From the IMG/VR virus record IMGVR_UViG_3300033407_000062, positions 1 to 38,245 of that record: DNA of 38,245 bases; one strand, 5' to 3'. Each line of letters opens with the position of its first letter. Position 1 is the first letter of the stretch. The position numbers and the translations under genes were made by a program. The DNA comes from a virus. Below, in pieces: positions 10,260 through 29,153 of this stretch. The notes under the pieces were generated by a model that worked only from the letters and a program-made list of their open reading frames with translations, made no database searches and was not told where the DNA came from.

Positions 10260-10264
10260 CGGGG

Positions 10265-11728: not shown

Positions 11729-11757
11729 TTGACTTTTATTTATAGGTGTTGTATTAT
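11729..11757 (+). promoter_or_regulatory. rightward promoter (-35 TTGACT, 17 nt, -10 TATTAT), same core family as the early promoters
   Basis: gTTGACTtttatttataggtgttgTATTATt read directly, 38 bp from the leftward -35. Confidence 0.65.
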
Positions 11758-11763
11758 TGACTT

Positions 11764-12048: not shown

Positions 12049-12098
12049 GCAAAGGCCCTGAACGGTACAAACACGGCAAAAGAGGTTATACTGACAAT

Positions 12099-13354: not shown

Positions 13355-13461
13355 TTACCCATGTATCAATTCATGACTATTCTCAAAATAAATAACGCTC
13401 GATCCCGCCTGTTTGTACGGATTTCCCAGTCGCCAGATTCGCGTTTGTTGGGGTTTGTATA

Positions 13462-15189
13462 ATGGCGAAGAAGAAGCGCACAGAGCCGCAGAGACTTCTC
13501 GACCTGCCTGTTATCGAAGCGTTATCAATCAAGGGATGGTTACAAAAGGATATAGTCGATCACCTTAACGAAATACGCCCCTATAAATTGACACAGCAAC
13601 AAGTGTCTTACGACATCGCTCAAATCCGTGAGCGCTGGGTCGAAGCCGCCACCCAGGAGATACTCGAATCCCGTGGACGCGTGCTTGCGACCCTGCGCGT
13701 TCAGCAGGAGGAAGCCTGGCGCGGATGGGTACGCAGCACCGAACCGATCAAGGTCACGCAAAAGCGCATCACCGAAGGTCCACAGGGGACAACGAAGGAA
13801 ATGACCGAGCGCACCGAAGAGGGCAAATGGGACAAGGGCTTTTTGGATGTCGTAACCGCGAACATAAAAAGCTACCGCGATATTTTAGGCATGGACGCGC
13901 CGAAGCAGGAAAAGGGCGACCTGCTAAACCCATCCGATAAGCCGCAGAATATCACCATCCCCGCCGACGTTATCGCGCCCGATATGCTGGCGTCCTATCG
14001 CGCGATCAAGTCGGGGCAGTATCATGAATTTCTGGAAGAGGGCGGGCGCGGTAGTACCAAGTCGTCATTCATAAGTATGATGTGCATTGAGTTGTTGATC
14101 AACAATCCCGACGTGCACATGCTGGCCTCCCGTCAAGTCGGTAACACGATGCGGGATAGTGTCTACGCACAACTCAAATGGGCTATCGGCGAACTCGGAT
14201 TATCCGACCTGTTCAAGACCATCACGAACCCGATGGAGATCACCTACCTGCCGACCGATCAAAAGATATATTTCCGCGGGATGGATGATGTCGGCAAAAT
14301 AAAATCAATTACACCCGTCAAGGGTTATATCGGTATTTTCTGGCTGGAGGAAGCAGATCAGGCACGCGGCCCCGAAGCGATCCGTAAGGTCGAGCAGAGT
14401 CTACGCGGCGGTGAAAAGATGTGGTTCTTCAAGTCGTGGAACACCCCCCGCCCGCTGAAGCATTGGATTAATCAATACGTCCTGACCCCCAAGAAAAAGC
14501 AATACCATCACAAAAGCAATTATATGAATGTACCGCGCGAATGGCTGGGGAGTATCTTCATCGAGGAAGCCGAACACCTGCGACAAGTCAATCCGAAAGC
14601 CTATGCCAATGAATACATGGGCGAAGCGACCGGCTTGGGCGGTACGGTATTCGAGAACGTGGTAGGCAGGGAGATCACCGATAAAGAGATCAAGCAGTTC
14701 GACCAGGTTGGGCAGGGCATGGATTACGGCTGGTTCCCTGATCCGTTCGTATGGACGCGCAGCCACTTTGACGCCGCCCGCCTGAAACTGTATATTTTCG
14801 ATGAATACCACGTAAATAAAAAGCGCAATAAAGCCGTGTATAACTATCTGGTCAAAGAAAAGCACATCGACAAATACAAGAATGAATTAGTTATCGGCGA
14901 CTCAGCATCACCGAAAGACGTGGCCGACTTCCGCGAGTACGGCATGAACATACGCGGAGCAGAGAAGGGCCCCGACTCAGTTGATTATTCCATGAAGTGG
15001 TTGCAGGGATTGGTCGAGATCGTCATTGACCCCGTGCGCTGTCCGTACACACTAAAGGAATTCTATTCTTACGAATTGGAGCAGAACAAAGATGGTGAAT
15101 TCATCAGTTCCTATCCAGACCGTGATAACCACTCGATTGATTCTGTGCGCTATCGAACTAATCTGCTATGGCGTCGTCGCGGTCAATGA
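13462..15189 (+). CDS. terL: terminase large subunit (PBSX/XtmB-like) with an extra ~170-aa N-terminal HTH-like region
   Basis: Walker A EEGGRGSTKS. Terminase-like motifs follow. The gene sits before the portal gene. Confidence 0.8.
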   Translation: MAKKKRTEPQRLLDLPVIEALSIKGWLQKDIVDHLNEIRPYKLTQQQVSYDIAQIRERWVEAATQEILESRGRVLATLRVQQEEAWRGWVRSTEPIKVTQKRITEGPQGTTKEMTERTEEGKWDKGFLDVVTANIKSYRDILGMDAPKQEKGDLLNPSDKPQNITIPADVIAPDMLASYRAIKSGQYHEFLEEGGRGSTKSSFISMMCIELLINNPDVHMLASRQVGNTMRDSVYAQLKWAIGELGLSDLFKTITNPMEITYLPTDQKIYFRGMDDVGKIKSITPVKGYIGIFWLEEADQARGPEAIRKVEQSLRGGEKMWFFKSWNTPRPLKHWINQYVLTPKKKQYHHKSNYMNVPREWLGSIFIEEAEHLRQVNPKAYANEYMGEATGLGGTVFENVVGREITDKEIKQFDQVGQGMDYGWFPDPFVWTRSHFDAARLKLYIFDEYHVNKKRNKAVYNYLVKEKHIDKYKNELVIGDSASPKDVADFREYGMNIRGAEKGPDSVDYSMKWLQGLVEIVIDPVRCPYTLKEFYSYELEQNKDGEFISSYPDRDNHSIDSVRYRTNLLWRRRGQ

Positions 15190-15271
15190 CATCGAATGAC
15201 CCACGCAAATGGAATGAGCATTTACTTCGCAGGCGCACGATTAAGCAGTACACTAGATACATGAGGCAATT

Positions 15272-16789
15272 ATGAATAATTTTATATCGTCCATTTGGAA
15301 CTGGATCAAAGGAGTATTTGGCATGAATCAAACTCAAATAAATAAGGCATTTAATATAACCCTGATGGATGTCTCGACCCCGATGGTTGAGGCTCTTTTG
15401 TTATGGTCGAAGCTGTACAAGAATGAGGCAGACTGGACAACCGCCGACACCCCCAGCCTGTCGCTCCCATCCGCTATCGCTGGCGAAATCGCGCGCCTCA
15501 CGACCATAGAAATGGAAGTCAATATCACCGGGAAGAAACCCGACCAGGCACCCGATACAACCGCGCCCGTCGAGCCTGCCCCTTCCAAGCGTGCGGATTA
15601 CCTGTCTATACAATTTGATAAGGTGATGAGCCGACTAAGAGAGGAAGTCGAATACGGATGCGCGAAGGGCGGGATGGTCATCAAACCATACGTCAACGGT
15701 AAAGAGATCGCCTTCAACTTTGTGCAGGCTGATGAGTTTTTCCCGATTGAGTTCGACGCCAATGACGCAATGGTAGATGTTGTATTCTCCGACCAGCGTA
15801 AGATCGGCGATACCTATTACACGCGCCTGGAACGTCACACGATGGGGGATACCGTTATCAATGGCAAACCACGACGCGGATGCAATATCATCAACAAGGC
15901 GTACAAATCCAGCACTCAGGAAACACTTGGCAGCGAGATCGAATTATCAAGCGTTCCCGCATGGGCTGAACTCGAAGGCGACAAGTGGATCGCGCCGCTG
16001 GATAAACCCTTATTCTCTTACTTCAAGTTCCCGCAAGCCAACAACATAGACACCGCGTCCCCCCTGGGCGTCTCGTGCTACGCGCGCGCGGCGATGGGTA
16101 CAAATCCGCTGATCAAACAAGCGGATGATATTTGGTCTAATTTCCTGTGGGAGTTTGAGTCTGGCAAGCGGGCCATCGACGTGGATGAACTGGCGTTCGA
16201 CCGCGACTCTAACGATAACCCCATCCTGCCGAACCGCCGACTATATAGAACTTATAAACAGAGCGGTACAAGTATTGGCGCGGGCGGGGATCTGTTTAAG
16301 GAATGGACGCCGACTCTGCGAGAACAGAATATACTCGCAGGGCTGAACGCGATATTGAAGCGGATCGAGTTTGTGACATCATTGGCCTATGGCACGCTCT
16401 CCGATCCGAACCTGGTCGATAAAACGGCGACTGAAATTGTGTCACAGAAACAAAGGTCATACGCCCTTGTTAGTGATACTCAAAAGGCATTACAAGCAAC
16501 AATAGAGCAGACGGTTTGGGCTATGAATGCGTGGGCAGATATTAATAAGCTGTCTCCGCGCGGAGATTATGACGTTAGTTGCGACTTCGATGATTCTCTC
16601 ATTGTAGATAGTCAGGCGCAATTCTCTCAGGATCAACAGGCGGTTGGAATGTCTGCCATGTCTAAACAAAAATTCCTGGAACGTAACTACGGGCTGACGC
16701 CATCGGCCGCGCAGCTGTGGGTCAAGGAAGCGCAGGAGGAGCGCCCGCCCGTTGATCTATTCTCGAATCTGGATGAAACAGGATCGTAG
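15272..16789 (+). CDS. portal protein (SPP1 gp6-like)
   Basis: 505-aa ORF after terL with GAGG RBS. Size, position and acidic C-terminus are typical of portals. Confidence 0.7.
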   Translation: MNNFISSIWNWIKGVFGMNQTQINKAFNITLMDVSTPMVEALLLWSKLYKNEADWTTADTPSLSLPSAIAGEIARLTTIEMEVNITGKKPDQAPDTTAPVEPAPSKRADYLSIQFDKVMSRLREEVEYGCAKGGMVIKPYVNGKEIAFNFVQADEFFPIEFDANDAMVDVVFSDQRKIGDTYYTRLERHTMGDTVINGKPRRGCNIINKAYKSSTQETLGSEIELSSVPAWAELEGDKWIAPLDKPLFSYFKFPQANNIDTASPLGVSCYARAAMGTNPLIKQADDIWSNFLWEFESGKRAIDVDELAFDRDSNDNPILPNRRLYRTYKQSGTSIGAGGDLFKEWTPTLREQNILAGLNAILKRIEFVTSLAYGTLSDPNLVDKTATEIVSQKQRSYALVSDTQKALQATIEQTVWAMNAWADINKLSPRGDYDVSCDFDDSLIVDSQAQFSQDQQAVGMSAMSKQKFLERNYGLTPSAAQLWVKEAQEERPPVDLFSNLDETGS

Positions 16790-16880
16790 ACCTTGCGCGT
16801 TTTTGAATTGTGTATTACAATTGCCGTATAAAACATAGTTCGGCGGCTTCCTTGCCAGCCGAATACGCAAGGAGAATATC

Positions 16881-17132
16881 ATGTCTGGATTTATGAGTAA
16901 CTGTCCATTTGGCGATCATGGCGAAGCGTTTTTGTGGCATGGAAGCGGTAACGACGAAATAGATGTTGCCGTTGTTGAACTCATGCAGTTGTCAGAGTTG
17001 GATGAAAAAACGGCTCTTGAAATTGCAGATGAAATCGGCGCATGTTTATCACGCCGCCGAACAATGCTTGCACCCGACAAGGGGCAGGCGGCGGTCGTGA
17101 AAGATAATCAGGTCTTTGCCCCTTGCGGGTAA
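16881..17132 (+). CDS. hypothetical 83-aa acidic protein
   Basis: AAGGAG RBS. Its stop codon lies inside a junction motif. Confidence 0.5.
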   Translation: MSGFMSNCPFGDHGEAFLWHGSGNDEIDVAVVELMQLSELDEKTALEIADEIGACLSRRRTMLAPDKGQAAVVKDNQVFAPCG

Positions 17133-17147
17133 AGCCAGCCGTTAGGC
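17125..17147 (+). repeat. gene-junction motif copy (GCGGGTAAAGCCAGCCGTTAGGC)
   Basis: Contains the TAA of 16881-17132. ATG 17158 follows 10 nt later. Confidence 0.75.
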
Positions 17148-17157
17148 AACTAAAACA

Positions 17158-17970
17158 ATGAACCCTTATTATCAAAAAGATGGCATCACGATCTACAATG
17201 GCGATTGCCGCGAAGTCATGGCGGGCTTGCCTGATAATTCGTGTGGTCTAACGGTCACATCTCCGCCTTACAACATGCGAACCCGCATCCGTAATGGCGA
17301 GTACACCACCCGCGAACAGACAGACCACTTTAGCAGGAAGTATGAGCATTTTAGCGACGCACTTTCACCACAAGAGTATTATGAATTTCACAGTCACGCT
17401 ATCCGTGAAATGATGAGAATTTCAAATACGGTGCTTTGGAATATTCAGATTGTCACAGGTAGCAAAGAAGCCGTGTTCCGCATGATTGGCGATTTTGCCA
17501 AAGAAATAAAAGACATCATCGTGTGGGATAAAGGTCATGGTCAGCCAGCCATGCACGATAACGTAATCAATAAAGCGGCTGAATTGATTTTGATTTTTGA
17601 GAAAAACGCAACGGCAGGTAGAGAGTTTTCAAGGTCGTTTTTTCCTCGTGGTGAAATGACAGACATCTGGCGAATGAAGCGCGGCAATAATACCGAAAGT
17701 CACGGCGCAACTTTCCCGCTTCATTTGGCGCAAAAGGCTATCACTGGCTGGAGCGCAGAGAATGACGTTATCCTTGATCCATTCATGGGTACAGGTACAA
17801 GCCTAATAGCCGCAAGGAACGAAGGACGAAAAGCGGTAGGCATTGAAATCTCCGAAGAATATTGTGAGTTGGCGGTAAAGGGTCTGGCGCAAATGTCGCT
17901 CTTTACGTTGCCTAACACAGCGTCCACCCGACAGGGGCGGGCTGTGGCTCAAAATGAGTTATTCGGATAA
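17158..17970 (+). CDS. second DNA methyltransferase (N4/N6 family, SPPY motif)
   Basis: VTSPPYNM, then DPFMGTGTSLIAARNEGRKAVGIEI near the C-terminus. Confidence 0.8.
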   Translation: MNPYYQKDGITIYNGDCREVMAGLPDNSCGLTVTSPPYNMRTRIRNGEYTTREQTDHFSRKYEHFSDALSPQEYYEFHSHAIREMMRISNTVLWNIQIVTGSKEAVFRMIGDFAKEIKDIIVWDKGHGQPAMHDNVINKAAELILIFEKNATAGREFSRSFFPRGEMTDIWRMKRGNNTESHGATFPLHLAQKAITGWSAENDVILDPFMGTGTSLIAARNEGRKAVGIEISEEYCELAVKGLAQMSLFTLPNTASTRQGRAVAQNELFG

Positions 17971-18019
17971 TTATCAGGTCTTGCGTTCTCGCCCCTGCGG
18001 GTAACGCAAGCCGTTGGGC
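17910..18019 (+). repeat. 110-bp inverted-repeat-ended element, copy 2 (covers the last ~20 codons and stop of the MTase; its 3' arm 17997-18019 is a junction-motif copy)
   Basis: Aligned by eye with the reverse complement of 8512-8621. Confidence 0.85.
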
Positions 18020-18040
18020 TGACCCCGAAGGAAAATAAAC

Positions 18041-18304
18041 ATGAGCGAACATAATCCGAACGCATGGCAAGATGGTTTTGACGCATGGCAAAATGGATAC
18101 GATGACGCAATGTACGATGGTATTGATACGTCAAGCGAAATGCCGTGCAAATGCGAAGCGTGCCTGAAAGGTTACGCCGAAGGTCAAGAAGCCGCCTTGA
18201 AAGAAATCTTTGCTGGCAGTCAGTCTGCCCAACAAAGCGTGCCCCCGACTGTTGCTACAGTCGCCGCGCAAGAAGTCAATTTGGATGCCCGCAACAGCGG
18301 GTAA
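18041..18304 (+). CDS. hypothetical 87-aa protein
   Basis: GAAGGA RBS. Its stop codon lies inside a junction motif. Confidence 0.5.
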   Translation: MSEHNPNAWQDGFDAWQNGYDDAMYDGIDTSSEMPCKCEACLKGYAEGQEAALKEIFAGSQSAQQSVPPTVATVAAQEVNLDARNSG

Positions 18305-18319
18305 CGCAAACCGTTCGGT
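18297..18319 (+). repeat. gene-junction motif copy (GCGGGTAACGCAAACCGTTCGGT)
   Basis: Contains the TAA of 18041-18304 and runs into the 59-bp repeat. Confidence 0.75.
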
Positions 18320-18372
18320 GGAGCTGCGCTCACCCCAAAGAACGGGGTGGCTTGTCCACCGAACGGGGCGCG
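18314..18372 (+). repeat. 59-bp structured intergenic repeat, copy 2
   Basis: TTCGGTGGAgctgcgctCACCCCaaagaacGGGGTGgcttgTCCACCGAAcggggcgcg, with nested inverted repeats read directly. Confidence 0.9.
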
Positions 18373-18424
18373 GGATGTAATTCCGTTTTATCGGCTCTTT
18401 GAGAGCAGAAAGGTGTGGCTAAAA

Positions 18425-18661
18425 ATGGTAATGTGTTGGAGAGATAATCACGTTTTTTTGTGGGCAGACTATAATACTCTTGGCATCCCCGAAGGCTTGA
18501 TTTGCACGTGCGGCAAGCATCGCCTGACACGCTCCGCCGAACAACGGAATGATGCGGAAACGGGCATTCCAGCGGCTTGCGAGCATATGAATCGTATTCA
18601 TGGGACGGGGAACGATTGGTGTCTCGACTGTGGTTACTTCCCATTGCCGCCGCTTCCATGA
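18425..18661 (+). CDS. hypothetical Zn-ribbon protein (78 aa, start MVMCWRD)
   Basis: Contains CTCG and CLDCG pairs. The longer 104-aa ORF would start inside the repeat. Confidence 0.45.
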   Translation: MVMCWRDNHVFLWADYNTLGIPEGLICTCGKHRLTRSAEQRNDAETGIPAACEHMNRIHGTGNDWCLDCGYFPLPPLP

Positions 18662-18997
18662 ACGCCCGTTCCGCATATCCCGCGCCCCGTTAGACCCCTT
18701 CTTTCCATGAAGGGCGAACTTTGAAAAAATGAATGTTACGGCGTGCTTGAGCAACACTTTGGAGAAATCCATTCCGTGGATATGCCATAGCAGAGTAAGT
18801 CGGTAAAATTCCGACCCGCTGTTTCAGGCTTAGACCCCGCGTGTAGCGCGTAAAAAACTTCGGGCTTAGTAGCTTGTATTTCCGAGCGCGGGGTCTAACA
18901 AAGCATGCACCTGACGCTGGGGCAGTGTGCGAAATCTCAAACATTATCAAGGCTGTGGCGTTATCAGCGCGGACGGTTTCACCGTCCGAACCCCAGC

Positions 18998-19020
18998 GCA
19001 GGTAATGCCAGCCGTTAGGC
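18998..19020 (+). repeat. gene-junction motif copy (GCAGGTAATGCCAGCCGTTAGGC)
   Basis: ATG 19030 follows 9 nt later. The flank ..GCCAGCCGTTAGGCAAaTAAAACATG nearly repeats the one before ATG 17158. Confidence 0.7.
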
Positions 19021-19029
19021 AAATAAAAC

Positions 19030-19278
19030 ATGCACACTCACCCCAAGCCATTCACATTCACATTCACAAGATCGAAGCGGAAGCACTTGCGCCCGCCGAG
19101 ATTTTTTGTCATCTGCTCAGAGTGTGGCGTAGAGTTGCAGGCCGTCGAGGATGTGGACGGTTCGATCCATACATTCAGCACCAACCGCAGGCGGACGCGG
19201 AAACGGGTATACTCTTTCAGGCTGACCCCTGAGTCTGCCGAACGGGTTAGGGCTATGCAAAAAACAGGAGAGCTGTAA
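19030..19278 (+). CDS. hypothetical basic protein (82 aa)
   Basis: Contains CSECG. Coupled to the next gene. Confidence 0.45.
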   Translation: MHTHPKPFTFTFTRSKRKHLRPPRFFVICSECGVELQAVEDVDGSIHTFSTNRRRTRKRVYSFRLTPESAERVRAMQKTGEL

Positions 19279-19280
19279 CG

Positions 19281-19613
19281 ATGAGTATTATTGCTGATAT
19301 AAATACGGCTGTGATGGATGCGTATAAAAAGACAGGCGACTACCCCACAAAGATACACATAACCGATTCAGCGTATTATAAACTTTTGCAAGATGACGCT
19401 AAATACATGGGACAATGGACAGTATCCCCACCTCCACAAGATACGATTATGGGGGTTGAATGCCAACGATGGAGAGACGGGATGTTGGGTGACAGAGAGT
19501 TTGCACTGGATTATCAGGACGACTTAAAAAACGCTTACGCTTTTGGTTATGTTGTCCGAGATAAAGAGATAAAAAAAACCGAAATTAAATACCTGCACGT
19601 CGAAAGAATCTAA
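19281..19613 (+). CDS. hypothetical 110-aa protein
   Basis: GGAGAG RBS. Its stop abuts the ATG of the MuF-like gene. Confidence 0.55.
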   Translation: MSIIADINTAVMDAYKKTGDYPTKIHITDSAYYKLLQDDAKYMGQWTVSPPPQDTIMGVECQRWRDGMLGDREFALDYQDDLKNAYAFGYVVRDKEIKKTEIKYLHVERI

Positions 19614-21698
19614 ATGTTAGACCCCGACTTCCTTGACACACTCCCAGCCGAAGCCGTCGAGCTTTATCAGGAATTTGCCGACGGCGTGATCTCCGACCTT
19701 GCGCGTCGAATAGGTAATATGTCCTATTCATCCGCAGGCTGGCAGGCGCAGCGGTTACAGGAAGCGGGGCTTGCCTATCAGGACATCATCAAGCGCGTCG
19801 CACAACTGACAGGAAAATCAGAGGCGGCCATTCGGGGGATTTTCTACCGCGCGGGCGTCCGCTCCATGAGGTTCGACGAAAAGATATACAAGGCGGTGGG
19901 CATTGACCTGCCGCTCACGCTATCCCCCGCGATGCAGGACGTGCTGAATATAGGCATTCTCAAAACGAACGGGATACTCAAGAACCTGACACTCACGACC
20001 GCGCTATCAGGGCAACAGGAGTTCATTCGCGCCAGTGACATTGCCTATCTCGAGGTGACCAGCGGGACACGCGATTACAACAGCGCGATAAAAAAGGCGG
20101 TCACGAGCCTGGCGGATCGCGGGATCACATCCGTCAATTATCAAAGCGGCCACACGGATCAGATCGACGTAGCCGTGCGTAGAAACGTGCTAACAGGCAC
20201 GCAACAGACAGCGGGCGCGTTACAGCAGCAGCGCATGGATGAAGTCGGCGTTAATCTGGTCGCCGTGTCCGCTCATGCGGGAGCGCGTCCGTCACATCAG
20301 TTATGGCAGGGTAAGGTTTATTCCAGAACAGGCAGGCAGGGAAAATATAAAGACTTCGTAACTGAAACAGGCTACGGGACGGGACCAGGGCTTGGAGGTT
20401 GGAACTGTGTCATCGGCGATACCATGGTTTCAAGCCTTGCTAAACGTGCCGCTTACCGCCGTGAGTATTCCGGTGAGTTGATCGTCATTCACACCGCCGC
20501 AGGCAAGGAGCTTACCGTCACTCCGTATCACCCAATACTCACCGACCATGGATGGGTCGCGGCGAAGTTTCTTGACCATGGAGATTATGTAATCTGCCGC
20601 CCCGCGCTCGATGGGTCTTTTGAATCCAGCCCAGACGTAGACCAAAGCGAATCCAGAATTGAGGATGTATTTGATTCTCTTTCTGTAAGCGGGGCGATCT
20701 TCGACCTTCCTATTTCGTCCGGTAACTTCCACGGCGAGATTCCCGATGGCAAAGTCAACGTTGTATTTTCCGATGGCTTTTTGAGGGATGGCGTCGATCC
20801 CGTGATCGAGCAGGAGTTGGAAGAGGTCGGCTTCGGCTTTCCCGCGCGTTTTTCCAGTACGCTCATTTCCGAGCGCGCGCTTCCTAAGATCGTTGTACGT
20901 TCTCTTCATGCCTCTGACCGCATCGTGAGCGGCTTCGGTGAGGTCGATTCTCTCGTCGGCAGTCATTCTAGCGAGCCTGTTGACCATGGCTTCAGACCTA
21001 TCTTCGGCGATAGGTACTCCGAGTTTGTCGAGATACCTTCCGACAGCCCCCTCAGATATTCCAGTTTTGAAAGCGATTTCGTTCTTCCACATACCAGATT
21101 TATACATTTCAATCAAATCATCAGGGGTAACATTGAAGCGCCTTTTGATATATCCTTTCCAGTCATTTCCAGTGTAGACCCCGTTACGACGCAAGCAGTT
21201 TTGGATCGCATGAACAGAACAGCGATTCTTATCCGCGATGAATTGCAGGGTGTGGTTAGAGAGGTAGAGCTTGACTACATTGTCAGTATCGAGCGGAAGC
21301 CTTTTACGGGTCATGTTTATAATCTCCACACAGAAGGTGAATGGTATTCTGCAAATGGGATTATAACGCATAACTGCCGACATTCTCAATATCCATTCTA
21401 CGAGGGCATATCTGAGAACGTCTACAATCAGGAGATGCGCGAACAACTGGCTAATAAAACCGTCACGCTGAACGGCGTCGAGATGTCGCAGTACGATGCG
21501 TCACAGGTGCAGCGCGGTCTGGAGCGTAAAATAAGATTTTGGAAGCGGCGCAAGATAGCCATCGACGCGACAGGCTTGGACATAGACACATCCGTAGAGA
21601 CTACCAAAATACGTTATTATCAGAGTCAATTACGCGAATTTGTAAGGCAGACAAAACTTCCCCGCCAGAATGTGCGCGAGCAGGTTGTTGGCCAGTGA
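19614..21698 (+). CDS. head-morphogenesis / minor capsid protein (MuF, SPP1 gp7-like) interrupted by a 323-aa intein
   Basis: The exteins join as ..GPGLGGWN|CRHSQYPF.., a typical MuF conserved core. Intein blocks A, B, F and G are recognised (see the 20406-21374 feature). Confidence 0.8.
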   Translation: MLDPDFLDTLPAEAVELYQEFADGVISDLARRIGNMSYSSAGWQAQRLQEAGLAYQDIIKRVAQLTGKSEAAIRGIFYRAGVRSMRFDEKIYKAVGIDLPLTLSPAMQDVLNIGILKTNGILKNLTLTTALSGQQEFIRASDIAYLEVTSGTRDYNSAIKKAVTSLADRGITSVNYQSGHTDQIDVAVRRNVLTGTQQTAGALQQQRMDEVGVNLVAVSAHAGARPSHQLWQGKVYSRTGRQGKYKDFVTETGYGTGPGLGGWNCVIGDTMVSSLAKRAAYRREYSGELIVIHTAAGKELTVTPYHPILTDHGWVAAKFLDHGDYVICRPALDGSFESSPDVDQSESRIEDVFDSLSVSGAIFDLPISSGNFHGEIPDGKVNVVFSDGFLRDGVDPVIEQELEEVGFGFPARFSSTLISERALPKIVVRSLHASDRIVSGFGEVDSLVGSHSSEPVDHGFRPIFGDRYSEFVEIPSDSPLRYSSFESDFVLPHTRFIHFNQIIRGNIEAPFDISFPVISSVDPVTTQAVLDRMNRTAILIRDELQGVVREVELDYIVSIERKPFTGHVYNLHTEGEWYSANGIITHNCRHSQYPFYEGISENVYNQEMREQLANKTVTLNGVEMSQYDASQVQRGLERKIRFWKRRKIAIDATGLDIDTSVETTKIRYYQSQLREFVRQTKLPRQNVREQVVGQ
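20406..21374 (+). mobile_element. class-1 intein (Cys1 ... His-Asn, +1 Cys) with no recognisable in-frame endonuclease domain
   Basis: CVIGDTMV (block A), TVTPYHPILTDHGWVAAKFLDHGDYV (block B), GHVYNLHTEGEWYSANGIITHN followed by C (blocks F/G). Confidence 0.8.
20430..21314 (-). CDS. antisense homing-endonuclease-like gene inside the intein: two HTH-like repeats plus a DUF559/Vsr-like PD-(D/E)XK domain
   Basis: GGAG lies 9 nt before ATG 21314. Contains ..NEIAFKTGISEGAVGRYLDKLG.. and ..QKAIGKYNVDFAIGNLAVEVTGRNRKVEDRPAYRKRIKYILNSGFALVYVW.. Confidence 0.7.
   Translation of the reverse strand: MTRKRLPLDTDNVVKLYLSNHTLQFIADKNRCSVHAIQNCLRRNGVYTGNDWKGYIKRRFNVTPDDLIEMYKSGMWKNEIAFKTGISEGAVGRYLDKLGVPIAEDRSEAMVNRLARMTADERIDLTEAAHDAVRGMKRTYNDLRKRALGNERTGKTRGKAEADLFQLLLDHGIDAIPQKAIGKYNVDFAIGNLAVEVTGRNRKVEDRPAYRKRIKYILNSGFALVYVWAGFKRPIERGAADYIISMVKKLRRDPSMVGEYWVIRSDGKLLACGGVNDDQLTGILTAVSGTFSKA
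21360..21389 (-). promoter_or_regulatory. sigma70-like promoter for the antisense endonuclease gene (-35 TTGAGA, 18 nt, -10 TATAAT)
   Basis: Reverse complement of 21384-21389 and 21360-21365. It overlaps the intein C-terminal splice-junction codons. Confidence 0.5.
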
Positions 21699-22657
21699 CA
21701 TCATTACGGATATTGATATTCTCGAACGATGACGAAATTCTACAATTCGTTAAAGATGTCCTGCTCGATACAGGGTTCGATTCAATACTCAAGAGGGTGG
21801 AGGCTGATGTAGAGTTGGTCGCCTCTCTGAACGCCGAAGGCTGGGATCTGGTTCTGATCGACGCCTACCTGAACGGAAGCACAACGCCCGAGGAGATCAT
21901 CACGGTACTGAATGACCGCGAGCAGGAAGTCCCTTATCTGGTAATGTACGGGATGATTCGGGACATGACCGCGCTGCAGCTATTGCAGGTGAGTAATATA
22001 AATTATGTGTCGAAGGAAAACATCGCCTCATTGGGGCTGTCCATTAAAAAGGAACTGACAGCGGCGGGGGACAGGATGCGGGAGCGGATCGACCTCGAAC
22101 AGGCTACACTCCTTATTATTCAGGCGTTCGGTACCGCGCTGGAATTACGCGACCATGAAACGCGCGGGCATACGTTACGGGTCACGAAGCTGGCGATCCA
22201 ACTGGCGCGGGCTGTCGGATACCCTCGTCAAGGACTGCTCAATTTACATTGGGGAGCGCTCCTGCATGACATCGGCAAGATCGGCGTCCCTGACAATATC
22301 CTGCTGAAAGAGGGGGCATTGGATGACAAGGAACGACAGATAATAAGGTCCCATCCTGGACTAGCCTACAACCTGCTCTCGCCCATCCCATCATTGACCA
22401 AAGACATCAATATTCCATTCTGCCATCATGAGAAATGGGACGGGACAGGCTACCCGCGAAAGCTAAAGGGAAAGGCGATCCCGCTGGAAGCTAGGATATT
22501 CTCCATCGTGGATGTCTACGACGCCTTGACCAGCGACCGGCCTTATCGGGATGCGTGGAAAAAGGCGCGCGCGCTTGATTACATAAACGCCGAGCGACGC
22601 TTCTCATTCGACCCTGAGATCGTCCCCGTATTTCTGGATATGATGAAAGTAACCTAA
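21695..22657 (+). CDS. REC-like receiver plus HD-GYP phosphodiesterase (RpfG-like); start uncertain (GTG 21695 in a GTGA overlap is proposed)
   Basis: RILIFSNDDE...WDLVLID...YVSK looks like a receiver domain. HDIGKIGVP and HHEKWDGTGYP are HD-GYP signatures. Confidence 0.75.
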   Translation: MTSLRILIFSNDDEILQFVKDVLLDTGFDSILKRVEADVELVASLNAEGWDLVLIDAYLNGSTTPEEIITVLNDREQEVPYLVMYGMIRDMTALQLLQVSNINYVSKENIASLGLSIKKELTAAGDRMRERIDLEQATLLIIQAFGTALELRDHETRGHTLRVTKLAIQLARAVGYPRQGLLNLHWGALLHDIGKIGVPDNILLKEGALDDKERQIIRSHPGLAYNLLSPIPSLTKDINIPFCHHEKWDGTGYPRKLKGKAIPLEARIFSIVDVYDALTSDRPYRDAWKKARALDYINAERRFSFDPEIVPVFLDMMKVT

Positions 22658-22734
22658 TGCAATGTGGAACGTCTCATATTTGTGGTAGCCTTATGGCATC
22701 CTTTAGTATCGTAGACACATCATTGGAGCCGTTT

Positions 22735-23079
22735 ATGAGTGAGAGTTTATTGGTAGGCATATTGGGAACAGCGGTCGCAATGGTCGGGGCATTATTATCT
22801 TTTCATGCGGGCAGAGCGCTCAACAACGCGAACGCTCATTCGATCAATGCAAAGACGCTCATCGAGTTATCCGACAAGGTGCGTGAACTCACGAGGGAGG
22901 TTATCGAAATTCACAACGAACTGGATGACGTGAAAGATAAGAATCACCTGCTATGGGCGTATGTGTATCAACTGCTGGACGGATACAAAAAGAATGAGAT
23001 CGCTCCGCCCGAACCGCCCGCCGAGCTAAAGGATGACGCGCAAATGAGCAGTCTCTTGAAATGGATCAATGAGAAGTGA
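22735..23079 (+). CDS. hypothetical membrane-anchored coiled-coil protein (114 aa)
   Basis: GGAG lies 6 nt before the internal ATG. TM helix LLVGILGTAVAMVGALLSF. Confidence 0.5.
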   Translation: MSESLLVGILGTAVAMVGALLSFHAGRALNNANAHSINAKTLIELSDKVRELTREVIEIHNELDDVKDKNHLLWAYVYQLLDGYKKNEIAPPEPPAELKDDAQMSSLLKWINEK

Positions 23080-23350
23080 AAGCCACAGGAGCTCCCCTAA
23101 CCGCCCTGATTTCATGGGGACACTAGATGACCTGTGTGGCGTAGTGTAAGGTAGAATAGGCTCATGCCAACCGAACCAGAGATGAACAGAGAGTTTTTAG
23201 CCTTCCTGCAATTCCTTTACAGCCTGTGCAAACAGTATTGCTCGTGGTACGAAACTCACATCAAAAAGGAACGTAATTAATGCTATACTAAAACTAACTA
23301 CAGTGCAGGGCGCACCGCGTCACGCACAACCCTATAAGCAGGACTCATAA

Positions 23351-23400
23351 GAGCCATGCTGAGCGACAGAGAATATCTGTTATCAGCGTGGCTCTTTTTT
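23351..23400 (+). terminator. intrinsic terminator before the scaffold/capsid genes
   Basis: GAGCCATGCTGA...TCAGCGTGGCTC, a 12-bp stem with one G-U pair, followed by T6. Confidence 0.75.
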
Positions 23401-23496
23401 GTTTAGTCAATCGGCTATCCGCGAAGCCTAAAAGGCGCGGGCATCTGACGGAGAAGACCGTCTAAAACAATCTATATGTGAAACGGAGTAAATCAA

Positions 23497-24054
23497 ATGA
23501 ATAAGAAACAATTGACCGACCTGGGTATCGAAGAAGAAGTTGCAGATCAGATCATCGTTTTGCATGGCAAGGACATCGAGAAACACAAAGGCGATATTAC
23601 CACCCTGCAAACCGAACTTGATACCGCCAACGCCAGCTTGACCGAAGCAGGCCAGACCATTGAGAAATTCAAAGGTATGGACATCGACGCGATCAAGCAG
23701 GCCGCCGAAGATTACAAGGTTGAAGCCGAAAAAGCCAAGACCGAAGCGGCGGAGCAGATCCTATCGCTGAAACGCGGTCACGCCCTGGATGAAGCCCTGA
23801 AAGGCTCGTACAAGGTCAAGGACATCAAAGCGGTCAAGGCTTATCTGGATGATGAGAAGATCCAATTCAACGAGAAAGACGGTTCGTTTGTCGGCCTCAA
23901 GGAACAGATCGACCCATTGCTGACAGAAAAAGATTATCTATTCATTGACGAATCCGAAACGCCGAAGATCGTGGATGGCGCTAAATCTAAATCAGTACTA
24001 CCAGATGCTTTCGACGCCGCAATGAAGAAGGGCGCGGGCATCCCAACCGAATAA
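23497..24054 (+). CDS. scaffolding protein
   Basis: Acidic, helical 185-aa ORF directly before the capsid gene, with GGAG RBS. Confidence 0.7.
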   Translation: MNKKQLTDLGIEEEVADQIIVLHGKDIEKHKGDITTLQTELDTANASLTEAGQTIEKFKGMDIDAIKQAAEDYKVEAEKAKTEAAEQILSLKRGHALDEALKGSYKVKDIKAVKAYLDDEKIQFNEKDGSFVGLKEQIDPLLTEKDYLFIDESETPKIVDGAKSKSVLPDAFDAAMKKGAGIPTE

Positions 24055-24066
24055 GGATAAAACAAA

Positions 24067-24963
24067 ATGGCTAACTCCATTACATTAGTAAGTAAGTTTG
24101 TAGCCTTGATCGACACGGTCTACAAGCTGGAAAGCAAGACCGCCATGCTTGACCCGCTCACTCAGACCCCGGACTTCCTGGGCGCGAACGAGATCAAGGT
24201 CATGAAACTGTCCGCCGTAGGTCTTGGTACTTACAGCCGCGTGACAGGCTATCCCGCTGGCAATATCACCGCCGCGTGGGAAACGATGACACTGGCCGCA
24301 GAACGCGGCCGCGAGTTCACACTTGATCGCATGGATAACGAAGAAACTCTCGGCCTGGTGCTTGGTGCGTTAATCCGTGAATGGATGCGCGCCTATGTCG
24401 CGCCCGAACTCGACGCCTATCGATTCGCAAAGTACGCCGCAGGCGCAGGCTTGACCGTCGCCTCCCCCGCGACCCTCTCGACCGCCGCCGCAGTATTGGC
24501 CGCCATCGACGCGGGAAATCTTGCCATGAGCAACCAGGAAGTACCAGAGGAAGGGCGCAAGCTGTTTATCACTTACACCCTGTACGAACTTCTCAAAGCG
24601 TCCCTGACCCGCTCATGGACGAACGATGGCGCAGTAAGCCGCGCGGTTACATCCCTTGAATCGACCCAGGTTATCCCCGTCCCGCAGTCGCGTTTCTATT
24701 CCGCGATTGACCTGGACGCAGGCGCCACGGGCGGCGCGGGTGGTTTCGCCAAATCAGGCGACACCGGCACCGCCGATCTGAACTTTATGATCGTTGCCCC
24801 CTCCGCTGTCTTGCAACCGGTCAAGCTGAACATGGTCAAGTATTTCAGCCCGGACGTTTGGCAGGGTGGTGACTTCCACGCCTGGCAGTACCGCCTGTAT
24901 CATGACGCCTTTGTCTATGACAATAAGGTCAACGGGATCTACACTCACCTCAAAGATAGTTAG
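24067..24963 (+). CDS. major capsid protein
   Basis: 298-aa ORF after the scaffold gene with AAGGA RBS. Call rests on position and size. Confidence 0.7.
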   Translation: MANSITLVSKFVALIDTVYKLESKTAMLDPLTQTPDFLGANEIKVMKLSAVGLGTYSRVTGYPAGNITAAWETMTLAAERGREFTLDRMDNEETLGLVLGALIREWMRAYVAPELDAYRFAKYAAGAGLTVASPATLSTAAAVLAAIDAGNLAMSNQEVPEEGRKLFITYTLYELLKASLTRSWTNDGAVSRAVTSLESTQVIPVPQSRFYSAIDLDAGATGGAGGFAKSGDTGTADLNFMIVAPSAVLQPVKLNMVKYFSPDVWQGGDFHAWQYRLYHDAFVYDNKVNGIYTHLKDS

Positions 24964-24975
24964 TGAGGTGATCTT

Positions 24976-25191
24976 ATGAGACTACGAAAAGATGGAGTTT
25001 CGGTCACCGCTGTTCATCCCGCCGACATCGCCCGCTTCAAAAGTCTTGGCTACGTTGAGGTAGAGGGCGCGAAGCCCTCTACCAGCGCACCCAAGCCAGA
25101 CAAGGACTTCGCGCAGGAACAACAGGACATCGTTGAGGAAGTCATCGAGCCTGAGAAAAAGGCACGCAAGAAACGAGCCGCGAATAAGTAG
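24976..25191 (+). CDS. hypothetical head-associated protein (71 aa)
   Basis: ORF with RBS between the capsid and connector genes. Confidence 0.45.
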   Translation: MRLRKDGVSVTAVHPADIARFKSLGYVEVEGAKPSTSAPKPDKDFAQEQQDIVEEVIEPEKKARKKRAANK

Positions 25192-25201
25192 GTGATGAGT
25201 T

Positions 25202-25582
25202 ATGACCGCGTATGCAGATTACACCTATTATACAGACGAGTATCTAGGCATCCTGATAGCAGAGACAGACTTTCCGCGTCTGTCTCTGCGGGCGTCCGAA
25301 GTCGTTGACCAGATCACCTTCAACGGTGTGGCGGCCATCATCACAGCCGCCACACCCGCCGATCAAGTCCTGCTGATAAAAAATGCTGTCTGCGCAGTTG
25401 CCGAAGAAATGAGCGACATCGAAGCCAATGGCGGTGACGCGGGCATACAGTCCGAGAGTCTTGGCAACCATTCCGTGACCTACGTCCAGGGATCGACCCG
25501 CACGCTAACGCCCGATCAACGCTACGTCTACGCAGCTCGGAAGTATCTTGGTGATACAGGTCTGATGTACAGAGGCTTCTAA
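25202..25582 (+). CDS. head-tail connector/adaptor protein (gp6-like)
   Basis: Position and size within the SPP1/A118-like gene order. Confidence 0.55.
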   Translation: MTAYADYTYYTDEYLGILIAETDFPRLSLRASEVVDQITFNGVAAIITAATPADQVLLIKNAVCAVAEEMSDIEANGGDAGIQSESLGNHSVTYVQGSTRTLTPDQRYVYAARKYLGDTGLMYRGF

Positions 25583-25992
25583 TGCGCACAAACTCCCCCT
25601 GCACGCTCTACAATAAATATATCTCCGCTGGCGCGGAAGTTTATCAGCGCGCGGAGATTTCGGCTGTCAAGTTTGAAAATCGCAAGGCCGCGAATGTCAT
25701 TAAGTCAGGACTCCTCGAAGCCGACGCGGTTGTGATCTATATACCAACAGTGGTTATCAGCGGGTATTATGTGGAGCCTAAAGCATGGCAGGCGCTGGTC
25801 GTCAAGACTGGATTTCTTACCCTGCAACCAGGCGACTACATCGTGCGCGGAGTGGCGACCGAAGTCATATCCCCCACATTCACGATCACCGACCTGAAGG
25901 CGAAATATAACGACGTGGTACGGATCACGACCGTCGACCGCCAGGACGCAGGCTCACCGAGCATGTGGCACTATCAGATCGGAGCGAACTAA
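25582..25992 (+). CDS. head-closure / head-tail joining protein
   Basis: Coupled ORF in the connector block. Confidence 0.5.
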   Translation: MRTNSPCTLYNKYISAGAEVYQRAEISAVKFENRKAANVIKSGLLEADAVVIYIPTVVISGYYVEPKAWQALVVKTGFLTLQPGDYIVRGVATEVISPTFTITDLKAKYNDVVRITTVDRQDAGSPSMWHYQIGAN

Positions 25993-26387
25993 TGGCTGGC
26001 CCCGTTATCAATACCCCGCGCGGGACGATCATCGTCACCGAGAACGGCAAAGCCGAGTTGACGTTCAATCCGAACTTTCGCAGTAAGTGGCAGGGTAATT
26101 ACACCGCCGCTCAAAAGTTCGTAGACTCGGAGATCTTGCGGCTGAGTGAGCCATACACCCCATTATTGACCGGGACGCTCATTGCCAGCGGGATACTCGG
26201 GACGAAGATCGGCAGCGGTGAAGTGTCATGGATCGCACCCTACGCCCGCCGTCAATACTACTCACCGCGCAAAGCAGGCAGTGCCACGGGACCGCAGCGC
26301 GGCCCCCATTGGTTTGAGAGATTCAAAGCTGTGCACGGCAAAGCCGTAATAGCTGGAGCAAGGAGAATAGCGGGAGGCGGTCAATGA
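25992..26387 (+). CDS. minor capsid / tail-completion protein (start MAGPVINTP in a TAATG overlap)
   Basis: Pattern ..EPYTPLLTGTLIASG..WIAPYARRQYY..HWFERFKAVHG.. recalled from minor-capsid families. Confidence 0.5.
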   Translation: MAGPVINTPRGTIIVTENGKAELTFNPNFRSKWQGNYTAAQKFVDSEILRLSEPYTPLLTGTLIASGILGTKIGSGEVSWIAPYARRQYYSPRKAGSATGPQRGPHWFERFKAVHGKAVIAGARRIAGGGQ

Positions 26388-26836
26388 CCCTCATCTCCGC
26401 TGTAAAAACCTTCATGGCGACCTTCCCATCCCTGGAAAGCGGAACGATCGTCCTGACCGACCACATCGGAGCGCAGCCGATCCAGTATTCCATTCAACCC
26501 CTGCCAGGGCAAAGGATCGTCGAGCAATACATCGACGGCGCGACTGTGCGCGAATTTCCGTTCGTGTTTCAGACTGTCAAGTCGACAGCCGATGAACTCG
26601 AGCGGATCGAGACAAGCGGATTTCTTGAGGCGCTGATGGACTGGTTCGAGCAAAAGACGATAGACGGCGAACTGCCGGCGTTGGCGGCGAACCAGACCGC
26701 CCGAACCATTGAAGCCGTTTCGTGGGGTTTTCTCTACGAGCAGGGCGTCAGTGATACGGGCATTTATCAGATCGTCGTTTCGCTCAGATACGGGCAGACA
26801 CCCATTATGGCAACGCCCGAGGATACAGGCGCATGA
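26384..26836 (+). CDS. tail terminator / minor capsid protein
   Basis: Coupled ORF positioned before the tail tube gene. Confidence 0.45.
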   Translation: MTLISAVKTFMATFPSLESGTIVLTDHIGAQPIQYSIQPLPGQRIVEQYIDGATVREFPFVFQTVKSTADELERIETSGFLEALMDWFEQKTIDGELPALAANQTARTIEAVSWGFLYEQGVSDTGIYQIVVSLRYGQTPIMATPEDTGA

Positions 26837-27501
26837 CCAGAATGATCAACGAACTCCACAACAAGAACGAGGGCGAAACCTGCCTGATCGTCGGCAATGC
26901 CCTAAACCTGCGCCTGACGCCGCCCGAACTGTTCGATTATCCATCCATCGGACTCAATACCGTCCACGAGTACGAAGGATGGTCGCCCGATTACTACGCC
27001 GCCGTTGACCTGAGAGTCATGCACGAATTCAAGGACGCGGTCAACAAGAAGATGAAAGACGGCACGATCCTGATACCGTTCCCGAAGTTGAAAGCCTGGA
27101 CGGGTGATAACGTGGTCTACTTCAAGATATCAGGGCCTCCACTGTGGAAGCCTGGGAGCAGAACACTTTGGCAGGATAATATCGAGGGCGGCTTGTCCTA
27201 CTCAAACGGGATGCACGTTGCGATGAAGCTGGCTTGTTATCTTGGATTTACAACCCTGCTTATCATCGGGATGGAGCATGACAAAAATAACAACGCCCGC
27301 AAATTTTGGGGCGTGGATCACGGCATGAATCCCGCCGTACCCGTAGACACATGGATGGAAGGATATAAGCAGTTGTCCGAAGCCATGCGCGCGCGCAATA
27401 TAACGATGCTGAATATCAGCGAAAACACATTCGTACCCGAAGAAATAATAACGCGCGGCGACTGGAGAGACTACGCCCGCACAAAACAAGGAGAAACATA
27501 A
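26833..27501 (+). CDS. DUF115/MptE-like (Maf / sialyltransferase-like) putative glycosyltransferase inside the tail module
   Basis: CLIVGNALNL resembles the (I/V)xGNGPSL motif. SNGMHVAMKLACYLGFTTLLIIGMEHD resembles the second conserved block of that fold. Confidence 0.35.
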   Translation: MTRMINELHNKNEGETCLIVGNALNLRLTPPELFDYPSIGLNTVHEYEGWSPDYYAAVDLRVMHEFKDAVNKKMKDGTILIPFPKLKAWTGDNVVYFKISGPPLWKPGSRTLWQDNIEGGLSYSNGMHVAMKLACYLGFTTLLIIGMEHDKNNNARKFWGVDHGMNPAVPVDTWMEGYKQLSEAMRARNITMLNISENTFVPEEIITRGDWRDYARTKQGET

Positions 27502-27992
27502 TGGCTGAAATAGTTAGAAGTCTGGTCGCTCACTTCCTGGATACGACCCCCAGCGAAACAAGCCCGACATACTCAAAGTTTGGCAGCGGTGTTCTGTCGC
27601 TGAATATGAGCTACAACCCCAACACCGTCACCGAGCAGTATATCGACGAGAACTCAGGGCATACGCTGGTGCAGAATTATGCGCCGACCCTGCCCGTCAC
27701 CCAACGCGCGTTCCCTGGTGATGCGATCTTCGATTTCATCGACGGATTACGCCAGATCCAATCCATCGGCGGAGATGACCTGACCACCGTTGTCGAGGTG
27801 CGCTTGTACGAGACACCCGAAACGGACGGCTTGACATATCCTGCGACTCAATGGGATGTGGCCATTCAATTCGAGAGCGGCCCTGGTGGTGACGGCGGAT
27901 CGAATGCGGAGATCACTTACACGATCAACGTCAAGAGCGATCCCGTCCCTGGAACATTCAACACGTCAACACTGGCGTTCACAGCGGACTAA
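27501..27992 (+). CDS. major tail (tube) protein
   Basis: 163-aa ORF before the chaperone/tape-measure block, followed by a strong hairpin. Confidence 0.65.
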   Translation: MAEIVRSLVAHFLDTTPSETSPTYSKFGSGVLSLNMSYNPNTVTEQYIDENSGHTLVQNYAPTLPVTQRAFPGDAIFDFIDGLRQIQSIGGDDLTTVVEVRLYETPETDGLTYPATQWDVAIQFESGPGGDGGSNAEITYTINVKSDPVPGTFNTSTLAFTAD

Positions 27993-27996
27993 ATAA

Positions 27997-28021
27997 TAGC
28001 CCCGCCTTTATGGCGGGGCTA
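27997..28021 (+). other. 10-bp hairpin after the tail tube gene (no T-run; possible attenuator or mRNA stabiliser)
   Basis: TAGCCCCGCC-tttat-GGCGGGGCTA read directly. Confidence 0.55.
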
Positions 28022-28077
28022 TGAACCCCGCAACCCCGCCGAGCTACGGCGGGGCAAGATGCGGAGGAAAGGCAACG

Positions 28078-28560
28078 ATGGAAGAAAAGACCCTGCAAAT
28101 ATCGACGGGACTTGTCCGCCTGCCTGTTTCGGTGGATGGTGTCAATGGCCGCGTTATTGAATTTAACCCGAACGATGTCAAATTCACAGAGCGCGTTCTC
28201 GCTTTTTATCATACGGTCAAAAGCAAGACGAAGGATTGGGAAGCGCTCGATCCCGAACTAAAAAAGCGTATCGAAGAAATACCGCTGGATGAGAACGGCG
28301 TCCCTGACAACATCGACCCCGCCCGTCTAACGCTGGAGGCTATGAATACCTTCATGCGCTCGGAGTTGGATGTCATTTTCGGGGAAGGAACGTCCCGGGA
28401 GATTTTCGGGGACGCGATCTACCGCAACCCCGAGGTGTATGTACAGCTTGTCGAGGGCATCAAGCCATTCGTCGAGCCTGTCCGCGCTGAGAAGATAAAG
28501 AAATACATCGTTCCGAAGCCTCCGAGCAAGCCCCGCAAGCGTAAGGCAAAGGTGAAGTAA
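28078..28560 (+). CDS. tail assembly chaperone (A118 gp14-like position)
   Basis: GGAGGA RBS before MEEKTLQ. Acidic body with a Lys-rich C-terminus. Confidence 0.5.
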   Translation: MEEKTLQISTGLVRLPVSVDGVNGRVIEFNPNDVKFTERVLAFYHTVKSKTKDWEALDPELKKRIEEIPLDENGVPDNIDPARLTLEAMNTFMRSELDVIFGEGTSREIFGDAIYRNPEVYVQLVEGIKPFVEPVRAEKIKKYIVPKPPSKPRKRKAKVK

Positions 28561-29150
28561 TGACCTACGACAGCACAAAAGACACAAAAGAACATATTGA
28601 AAATGTCAAAAGCCTACTTCAATTAGTAGTCGGTGAAATTGTAGCGCGTGCCTTACGCCATGACGCAAGTAAGTTATTAACACCTGAAAAAGAGATATTC
28701 GACGAGTTCACGCCGAAGCTAAAAAACTCTACCTATGGAAGCGATGAGTACAAATCGTATTTGAAGGATATGGGCGTCGCTCTACAACATCACTATGAAC
28801 ACAACTCGCACCACCCAGAGCATTACAAGCTCTGGAAATGTCCAGTTTGTAACACTGTATTTCCAGAGGATGACGCACCTATTAGCGCGGTGCTGGAAGG
28901 TGATAAAAGGCTCTGCCCCAGGTGTTGCGCTGGTGGAACAATCATGGAGTGCATGCTTGAGCCTGTAATAAGTATCAACGGAATGAGCCTGCTTGACGTT
29001 ATCGAAATGCTGGCAGATTGGAAAGCCGCAGGGATGCGCCACGCGGACGGCGATATTCAAAAGTCACTTGAGATAAACAAGAAGCGGTTTGATATATCCG
29101 ACCAGATGGCGGCAATATTGGAAAACACCGTCAAGGAATTTGACTGGTAG
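28560..29150 (+). CDS. HD-related DUF5662-like protein with an inserted Zn ribbon
   Basis: RHDASKLLTPEKE...YGSDEY...ALQHHYEHNSHHPEHY pattern, with CPVC...CPRCC inserted. Confidence 0.4.
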   Translation: MTYDSTKDTKEHIENVKSLLQLVVGEIVARALRHDASKLLTPEKEIFDEFTPKLKNSTYGSDEYKSYLKDMGVALQHHYEHNSHHPEHYKLWKCPVCNTVFPEDDAPISAVLEGDKRLCPRCCAGGTIMECMLEPVISINGMSLLDVIEMLADWKAAGMRHADGDIQKSLEINKKRFDISDQMAAILENTVKEFDW

Positions 29151-29153
29151 AGC

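Follow-up and report, generated by a model that had tools for sequence, protein, structure and literature searches.

The locus described here raises the question of what a protein built like a bacterial response regulator does among the head genes of a phage. In the IMG/VR virus record IMGVR_UViG_3300033407_000062, analysed over positions 1 to 38,245 (this whole stretch of 38,245 nucleotides is referred to as the window), a gene on the + strand at 21695-22657 encodes a protein of 320 residues that combines a REC-like (receiver-like) N-terminal region with a C-terminal HD-GYP domain. The features of this protein, its relatives and its surroundings suggest an active HD-GYP phosphodiesterase with cyclic di-GMP (c-di-GMP) as the likeliest substrate, probably independent of kinases, made late in infection and carried as optional phage cargo. 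Judged from sequence and predicted structure, the probability of this reading is placed at about 0.6.

The first codon of the gene, GTG at 21695, shares bases with the TGA that ends the preceding gene (GTGA), and the reading frame closes with TAA at 22655-22657. A sequence-only reading of this DNA had placed an open reading frame (ORF) at exactly these coordinates; the gene caller used on the source contig predicts the same gene, and the identical protein has been recorded on two further contigs. The gene product comprises a receiver-fold domain with a degenerate active site (residues 1-107; 21695-22015, +), recognised from the AlphaFold model, Foldseek and a profile of its clade, a long connecting helix leading to the catalytic domain (residues 107-152; 22013-22150, +; DSSP on the model) and the HD-GYP catalytic domain (residues 148-309; 22136-22621, +), assigned from Pfam HD_5, Foldseek and the alignment with PmGH of Persephonella marina. 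The left boundary is formed by the gene of minor capsid protein 2, an SPP1 gp7-like protein interrupted by an intein (19614-21698, +; Pfam Phage_min_cap2, E 3.9e-99, and Intein_splicing), and the right boundary by the capsid scaffolding protein gene (23497-24054, +; Phage_scaffold, E 2.6e-35). The gene therefore lies between head-morphogenesis and scaffold genes, as that reading had it. The peptides on which its domain assignment was built have all been located: HDIGKIGVP at 191-199 and HHEKWDGTGYP at 244-254, both HD-GYP signatures, and SNDDE at 10-14, DLVLID at 51-56 and YVSK at 104-107 in the N-terminal region.

The catalytic domain is identified with high significance. Pfam HD_5 matches residues 148-309 with an E-value of 8.2e-38 (130 bits against a cut-off of 27.2), and the Pfam HD family matches the protein with an E-value of 2.8e-18. 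Among the proteins of known structure, the sequence matches PmGH (4mcw, E 7.7e-37), V-cGAP3 (5z7c, E 4.4e-34) and PA4781 (4r8z, E 2.3e-25). An AlphaFold model built on an alignment of 36 sequences, with a mean pLDDT (predicted local distance difference test) of 91.5, retrieves 4mcw, 4r8z and the c-di-GMP-bound DvhD domain (9rbz) in Foldseek at about E 1e-13. PmGH (PDB 4MCW/4MDZ), a trinuclear-iron c-di-GMP phosphodiesterase, is thus the best match of the catalytic domain in sequence as well as in structure, at about 33-35% identity over the domain. It differs in having a GAF-type N-terminal domain and in being encoded on a bacterial chromosome.

On the alignment with 4mcw all eight metal ligands of PmGH have one-to-one counterparts in the phage protein: E185 corresponds to Glu155, the ligand of the third metal, H189 to His159, H221/D222 to His191/Asp192, H250 to His220, H276/H277 to His244/His245 and D305 to Asp273. 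The roles of the residues were taken from Galperin & Chou and from Wright et al. Of the other functional positions, K235 corresponds to Lys205, the GYP motif, including its Tyr, to Gly252-Tyr253-Pro254 within the complete HHExxDGxGYP signature, and R314xxK317 to Arg282xxArg285, the guanine-reading motif Arg282-Pro-Tyr-Arg285. The KPG motif reads Lys205-Glu-Gly, the Pro being replaced by Glu. All 36 relatives retain Lys205, the GYP motif, RPYR and seven of the eight residues equivalent to metal ligands without change. The sequence-only reading was prepared to give up its enzyme should the catalytic residues prove degenerate on alignment; every functional residue of PmGH is matched and the site is not degenerate.

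According to Wright et al., the Rxx(K/R) motif reads the guanine of c-di-GMP and occurs in this canonical form in about 88% of HD-GYP domains, and its RxxQ/N form shifts the preference toward 3'3'-cyclic GMP-AMP (3'3'-cGAMP). The phage protein, with RPYR, lacks the Rxx(Q/N) signature of the cGAMP-selective 'GAP' enzymes such as PmxA and Bd2325. The canonical RxxR, together with the closeness of the catalytic domain to HD-GYP domains of Chloroflexota, favours c-di-GMP as the predicted substrate. The V-cGAPs of Vibrio also retain the canonical motif, so that 3'3'-cGAMP stays a less likely candidate substrate. The phage protein shares the catalytic fold and metal site with V-cGAP1-3 (PDB 5Z7C); V-cGAP3 differs in having a duplicated domain and no receiver.

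The similarity to V-cGAP3 also underlies the alternative that we regard as the strongest, although it is clearly improbable beside a c-di-GMP phosphodiesterase. Here the enzyme would serve counter-defence, degrading 3'3'-cGAMP, or c-di-GMP made by cGAS/DncV-like nucleotidyltransferases (CD-NTases) for STING-type effectors, and would so block abortive infection of the type mediated by cyclic-oligonucleotide-based antiphage signalling systems (CBASS); the structural proteins, thought to act as triggers of these systems, would be made at the same time. For HD-GYP proteins of jumbo phages, Iyer et al. (2021, PMC7824862) predicted a role against signals of SMODS/CBASS and type III CRISPR, and a homologue in the isolated Microcystis phage MaAM05 is annotated as a cGAMP phosphodiesterase. 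These resemble the present protein in being phage-encoded domains with a function proposed from sequence only; they differ from it in that the present phage is siphovirus-like with a genome of 38 kb and the protein has a receiver-fold N-terminus, MaAM05 sharing about 38% identity over half of the protein. As is usual for anti-defence genes, this one is also dispensable and moves between phages. The RxxR motif speaks against a cGAMP-selective enzyme, and among cellular proteins the nearest relatives are multi-domain signalling proteins of an ordinary kind from Chloroflexota. The sequence gives no pointer to cGAMP or another CD-NTase product as substrate, and the proposal presupposes a host with CBASS. 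In the relatives the gene closes the late operon, inside or adjoining the lysis cassette, and does not lie among early genes; late co-expression with structural proteins is not itself an argument against immune evasion. The characterised phage anti-CBASS nucleases have, to our knowledge, other folds.

The preferred phosphodiesterase acting on c-di-GMP appears to belong to a family carried by phages. Protein searches have identified full-length relatives of about 320 residues at 38-54% identity, nearly all from metagenome assemblies. All eight relatives that were looked up, the query being counted among them (39-54% identity), are in phage or prophage DNA, at other positions of the genome, among tail, endolysin and integrase genes, as judged from precomputed Pfam matches of the neighbouring genes. 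Three of them (P0010, P0004 and P0020) lie in or beside a glycoside hydrolase family 25 (GH25) endolysin cassette near an integrase, three (P0021, P0016 and P0024) are placed downstream of large tail genes and upstream of an integrase, and P0044 comes after a Gp10_C baseplate gene. The setting of P0094, a protein of 41% identity with a standard receiver, is by contrast that of an ordinary bacterial two-component system: the genes immediately before it encode a PAS-rich sensor kinase, a hybrid kinase and a REC-GerE regulator. In nine of ten loci the HD-GYP gene is co-oriented with the preceding late gene and at most 53 nucleotides (nt) away from it, and in five the start overlaps the preceding stop by 4 nt; the exception is L004, where the gene is divergently oriented. 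The HD-GYP gene and its neighbours have moved separately, and in different phages the gene is found at three positions at least. Packaging of the protein as cargo carried by minor capsid protein 2, the SPP1 gp7-like protein, was considered and found no support; the relatives' genes lie away from that capsid gene.

In the IMG/VR database there are 82 relatives, of which at least 11 are full length; where a match is more distant, presence in this database does not prove viral origin. Among the matches listed from 185,579 representative genomes, the best cover the catalytic domain only (50-58% identity), most such matches are from Anaerolineae/Chloroflexota, and the best full-length match has 38% identity. 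In 50,697 deposited phage records HD-GYP matches occur only in MaAM05 and in 28 unannotated faecal contigs. No PHROGs family matches the 320-residue protein, and the viral structure library holds no full-length equivalent of it. Short genes encoding the HD-GYP domain only have also been observed just upstream of the terminase gene in two phages (L071:1886-2452 and L074:8001-8516) whose terminase, portal and minor capsid protein 2 share 49-56% identity with those of the window; this phage group thus has HD-GYP domains at more than one position.

In a neighbour-joining tree the sequences with Ser10 and Phe/Tyr85, that of the window included, form one clade, and its sister is a larger clade with the full receiver signature, which passes the Pfam REC threshold. 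The members of the sister clade with known context are also from phages. The protein hence belongs to a lineage that has so far been seen only in phages among the members examined. One could extend the counter-defence proposal to the lineage as a whole, which would then be an immune-evasion device destroying cyclic-dinucleotide alarm signals, the present copy having become independent of kinases and the members with intact receivers being tuned to signals of the host. We hold this to be improbable, a shade more so than counter-defence by the present enzyme; if it were true, HD-GYP would be the third enzyme fold used by phages against immunity of the CBASS type.

The reading that a c-di-GMP phosphodiesterase works here without a kinase depends on the N-terminal region. 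In the AlphaFold model this region shows a five-stranded beta-alpha pattern (strands 4-9, 30-35, 52-56, 81-85 and 104-106) followed by the helix 107-152. Foldseek retrieves the isolated receivers HupR, PmrA and PhoB with target-normalised template modelling (TM) scores of 0.66-0.80, and a profile of the 16 closest N-terminal domains matches the receivers FleR, NtrC1 and CpxR in the PDB with E-values from 8.5e-6 to 1e-2. Homology to receivers is thereby established. The Pfam REC model (PF00072) scores 19.6 bits (E 1.1e-3), below its gathering score of 30.2, so that of the two domains for which confirmation by profile models had been proposed only the HD-GYP domain reaches its threshold.

The active site of the receiver is degenerate at three of its five signature positions. 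The sequence-only reading had recognised an acidic pair in SNDDE; the string is present, and alignments and the predicted structure show that the positions after strand beta-1 at which ordinary receivers have E/D-D are occupied by Ser10 and Asn11. Asp12 and Asp13 come two residues later, where helix 1 begins. Strand 4 ends in the switch position, at which Tyr85 stands in place of the usual Thr or Ser. The phospho-acceptor-like Asp of DLVLID and the Lys of YVSK are present as that reading described them (Asp56 and Lys107), the former being conserved in 35 of 36 relatives and the latter in most. Ser10 and Phe/Tyr85 are common to the whole nearest clade; the sister clade has E/D-D and Ser. No histidine kinase has been identified among the 46 window proteins scanned against Pfam, nor any kinase domain on the contigs of the eight examined relatives; a distant host kinase may still act. 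The replacement of three of five receiver positions and the absence of a histidine kinase among these 46 proteins make kinase control unlikely for this copy. The description of the protein as an RpfG-like REC-HD-GYP enzyme accordingly holds for the receiver fold and the HD-GYP domain, and not for the control by phosphotransfer that it implies.

The comparison with the RpfG family (Galperin & Chou, bioRxiv 10.1101/2021.11.05.467447), exemplified by TM0186 of Thermotoga maritima, leads to the same distinction. The two are alike in the order of receiver fold, long helix and HD-GYP domain, in the full set of metal- and c-di-GMP-binding HD-GYP residues and in the length of about 320-330 residues. 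The phage protein differs in its degenerate receiver site and sub-threshold REC match, in having no partner kinase nearby, in its location in a phage late operon and in that all the examined members of its lineage are from phages.

A kinase-responsive regulator, in which Asp56 would be phosphorylated by a host histidine kinase or by acetyl phosphate and c-di-GMP breakdown would be coupled to a host signal, is accordingly an unlikely alternative, ranking slightly below the immune-evasion lineage. It draws on the retention of Asp56 and Lys107, on the dependence of the studied RpfG-family enzymes on receiver phosphorylation for activity, and on the sister phage clade with its complete signature (E/D-D, D, S, K), from which it follows that phage copies with a working receiver probably exist. 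The present copy differs from these at both positions of the acidic pair and at the switch, and its nearest clade shares Ser10 and Phe/Tyr85 with it.

The related head modules show the gene to be an optional one. These were gathered through the major capsid protein, and the window proteins were then mapped onto each; about 30 loci that hold both the C-terminus of minor capsid protein 2 and the scaffold gene were counted. The two genes are 159-1805 nt apart in these loci, several of the closest having gaps of 159-331 nt. An HD-GYP gene is missing from this slot in about 30 related head modules, the longer gaps holding unrelated small ORFs. Among the modules so mapped only L016 (IMGVR_UViG_3300037722_000087, 2000-3270), a sibling phage with about 96% DNA identity, has the gene in the slot, and its copy lacks window positions 21796-22291. 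This deletion of 496 nt is out of frame, leads to a stop after 38 codons and takes out most of the receiver along with the HD motif; either a natural knock-out or an artefact of assembly could account for it. In the retained parts L016 differs from the window by 14 synonymous and 5 non-synonymous changes. In another sibling, L002, the HD-GYP gene is identical at 963 of 963 nt and lies downstream of an intein-less, more diverged capsid gene.

The absence of the gene from about 30 related modules and the broken copy in L016 indicate that it is dispensable and sits in a variable slot. It is present or absent among collinear relatives and found at other positions in other phages, which is what characterises a phage accessory ('moron') gene, and the accessory insertion in a canonical head module that had been proposed is thus upheld. 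In two related phages (L198:5504-5971 and L204:5584-6093) the same slot holds ORFs of 155-169 residues sharing an N-terminal 'PRDPxG..TGG' motif.

That the protein is a non-catalytic or decaying passenger, captured from a host and acting through protein contacts of the GYP motif or conferring nothing, is most improbable, since the frameshifting deletion in L016, the miscellaneous small ORFs in the slot of related phages and the known inactive RpfG-family members that work through protein contacts are outweighed by the invariance of seven of eight metal ligands and all substrate-binding residues over 36 relatives spanning 39-54% identity, by the excess of synonymous over non-synonymous differences from L016 and by the persistence of the family in many distinct phages at several genome positions.

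The preferred reading, a late phosphodiesterase acting on c-di-GMP, can then be outlined as follows. The protein would be a phage-lineage derivative of bacterial REC-HD-GYP response regulators of the RpfG type and would act as a metal-dependent phosphodiesterase, most likely on c-di-GMP. Because the acidic pair and the Thr/Ser switch are lost while the fold and the Asp are kept, it is probably not switched by a host kinase, and once made the enzyme would be constitutive or under some other control. Since the gene is packed into the late operon with its start overlapping the preceding stop, production with the head proteins late in infection is expected. The c-di-GMP of the host would then fall late in infection, with shifts in matrix production, motility and surface structures.

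Several points weigh against this outline. At the position of Glu155, the ligand of the third metal, the relatives vary and the nearest clade mostly has Gly, so that neither the product nor the use of metals need be the same throughout the clade. Some members of the RpfG family work by protein contacts and not by catalysis even though their motifs are good, and the literature search found no enzyme assay or experimental study of any phage HD-GYP protein. The retained Asp56 and Lys107 may permit some phosphorylation, for example from acetyl phosphate, and the tree that separates the two receiver clades carries no support values. The late timing of expression is read from gene order only, and the expected effect presupposes c-di-GMP signalling in the host that is of consequence to the phage.

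HD-GYP enzymes of phages have been predicted before, in jumbo phages, and the enzyme family and its chemistry are also already in the literature. If the present protein is active, it offers a compact and testable case of a small phage with its own cyclic-dinucleotide phosphodiesterase, and could show a late change of biofilm or motility signalling by phages, or a disarming of nucleotide-based immunity. The clades with intact and with degenerate receivers, side by side, provide a natural comparison of a two-component output enzyme re-wired outside the kinase network of the host. The practical gain is modest.

The insertion includes a second gene (22735-23079, +), which encodes a protein of 114 residues with an N-terminal membrane anchor and a coiled-coil/charged tail, and the small downstream membrane protein of the sequence-only reading, with its N-terminal hydrophobic segment, is therefore real. 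The sequence GGAG lies six bases before its ATG, and an alternative start at 22657 would give 140 residues. The protein occurs only in the closest siblings, L002 and L016; it has no Pfam or NCBIfam match and matches phrog_726 only at E 7e-4. It is unlikely to be the phage holin, as separate ORFs with two and with three transmembrane (TM) segments, both holin candidates, come after the GH25 endolysin gene in the window. A small membrane-anchored protein is also encoded by the next co-oriented ORF at 14 of the 17 loci of relatives, and these proteins belong to unrelated sequence groups. A conserved membrane partner was rejected, none of these proteins resembling the 114-residue protein. In L003, L004 and L005 the gene after HD-GYP is homologous to the two-TM, holin-like protein of the window (E 1.6e-17 for L003); the recurring membrane neighbour is thus attributed to insertion into lysis cassettes and not to a dedicated partner. 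A non-coding spacer of 417 nt (23080-23496; G+C 0.47) leads from the insertion to the scaffold gene and forms the right edge of the variable slot; it may bear a promoter or be a remnant of the insertion. A terminator had been claimed after the membrane protein; scanning 19000-24200 with a consensus gave no terminator-like site on the + strand.

The window carries an exact direct repeat of 127 nt at its two ends (1-127 and 38119-38245), from which a circular assembly of about 38.1 kb (about 38,118 bp) and hence a complete phage genome is deduced. Upstream of minor capsid protein 2, Pfam identifies a terminase, an SPP1-type portal and a DNA methylase. Two N6/N4 DNA methyltransferase genes (12689-13354 and 17158-17970) and a ParB-N/methyltransferase-like gene (12099-12692) flank the packaging genes and probably have anti-restriction functions. 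The leftward early arm encodes a protein of 639 residues (2119-4038, -) with a weak FtsK/SpoIIIE-like match (phrog_1358, E 5e-10), and also RecT (6890-7969), a DnaB_2/HTH_36 initiator (5965-6783) and a DnaC-like loader (5186-5965). The GH25 endolysin is encoded at 36069-36977, and the two-TM, holin-like ORF of 140 residues downstream of it (37833..137) runs across the circular junction. Neither an integrase nor a repressor was found among the scanned window proteins; an integrase is present in most of the relatives' loci. Megablast of the head region against the 50,697 phage records gave no match, and Rfam at gathering thresholds none anywhere in the window.

The minor capsid protein 2 gene contains an intein of 323 residues (CVIGDTMV...ITHN; 20406-21374, +), assigned by Pfam Intein_splicing; L002 and L016, the two siblings, lack it, as do about 30 related head modules. 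Antisense to it runs an ORF for a Vsr-like endonuclease with helix-turn-helix (HTH) repeats (20430-21314/21446, -), and the whole middle of the intein is the reverse complement of this conserved gene, for which 46 homologues at 30-68% identity have been identified. A sigma-70-like promoter is located at 21389-21360 (-), on the strand of the Vsr-like gene. L251 and L252 show this use of both strands as well, the intein frame again being kept open. Inteins of minor capsid proteins with an 'anti-sense VSR-like HEN' have been reported in actinobacteriophages (bioRxiv 10.1101/2025.01.02.630785), and the intein of the window matches this type outside that actinobacteriophage collection.

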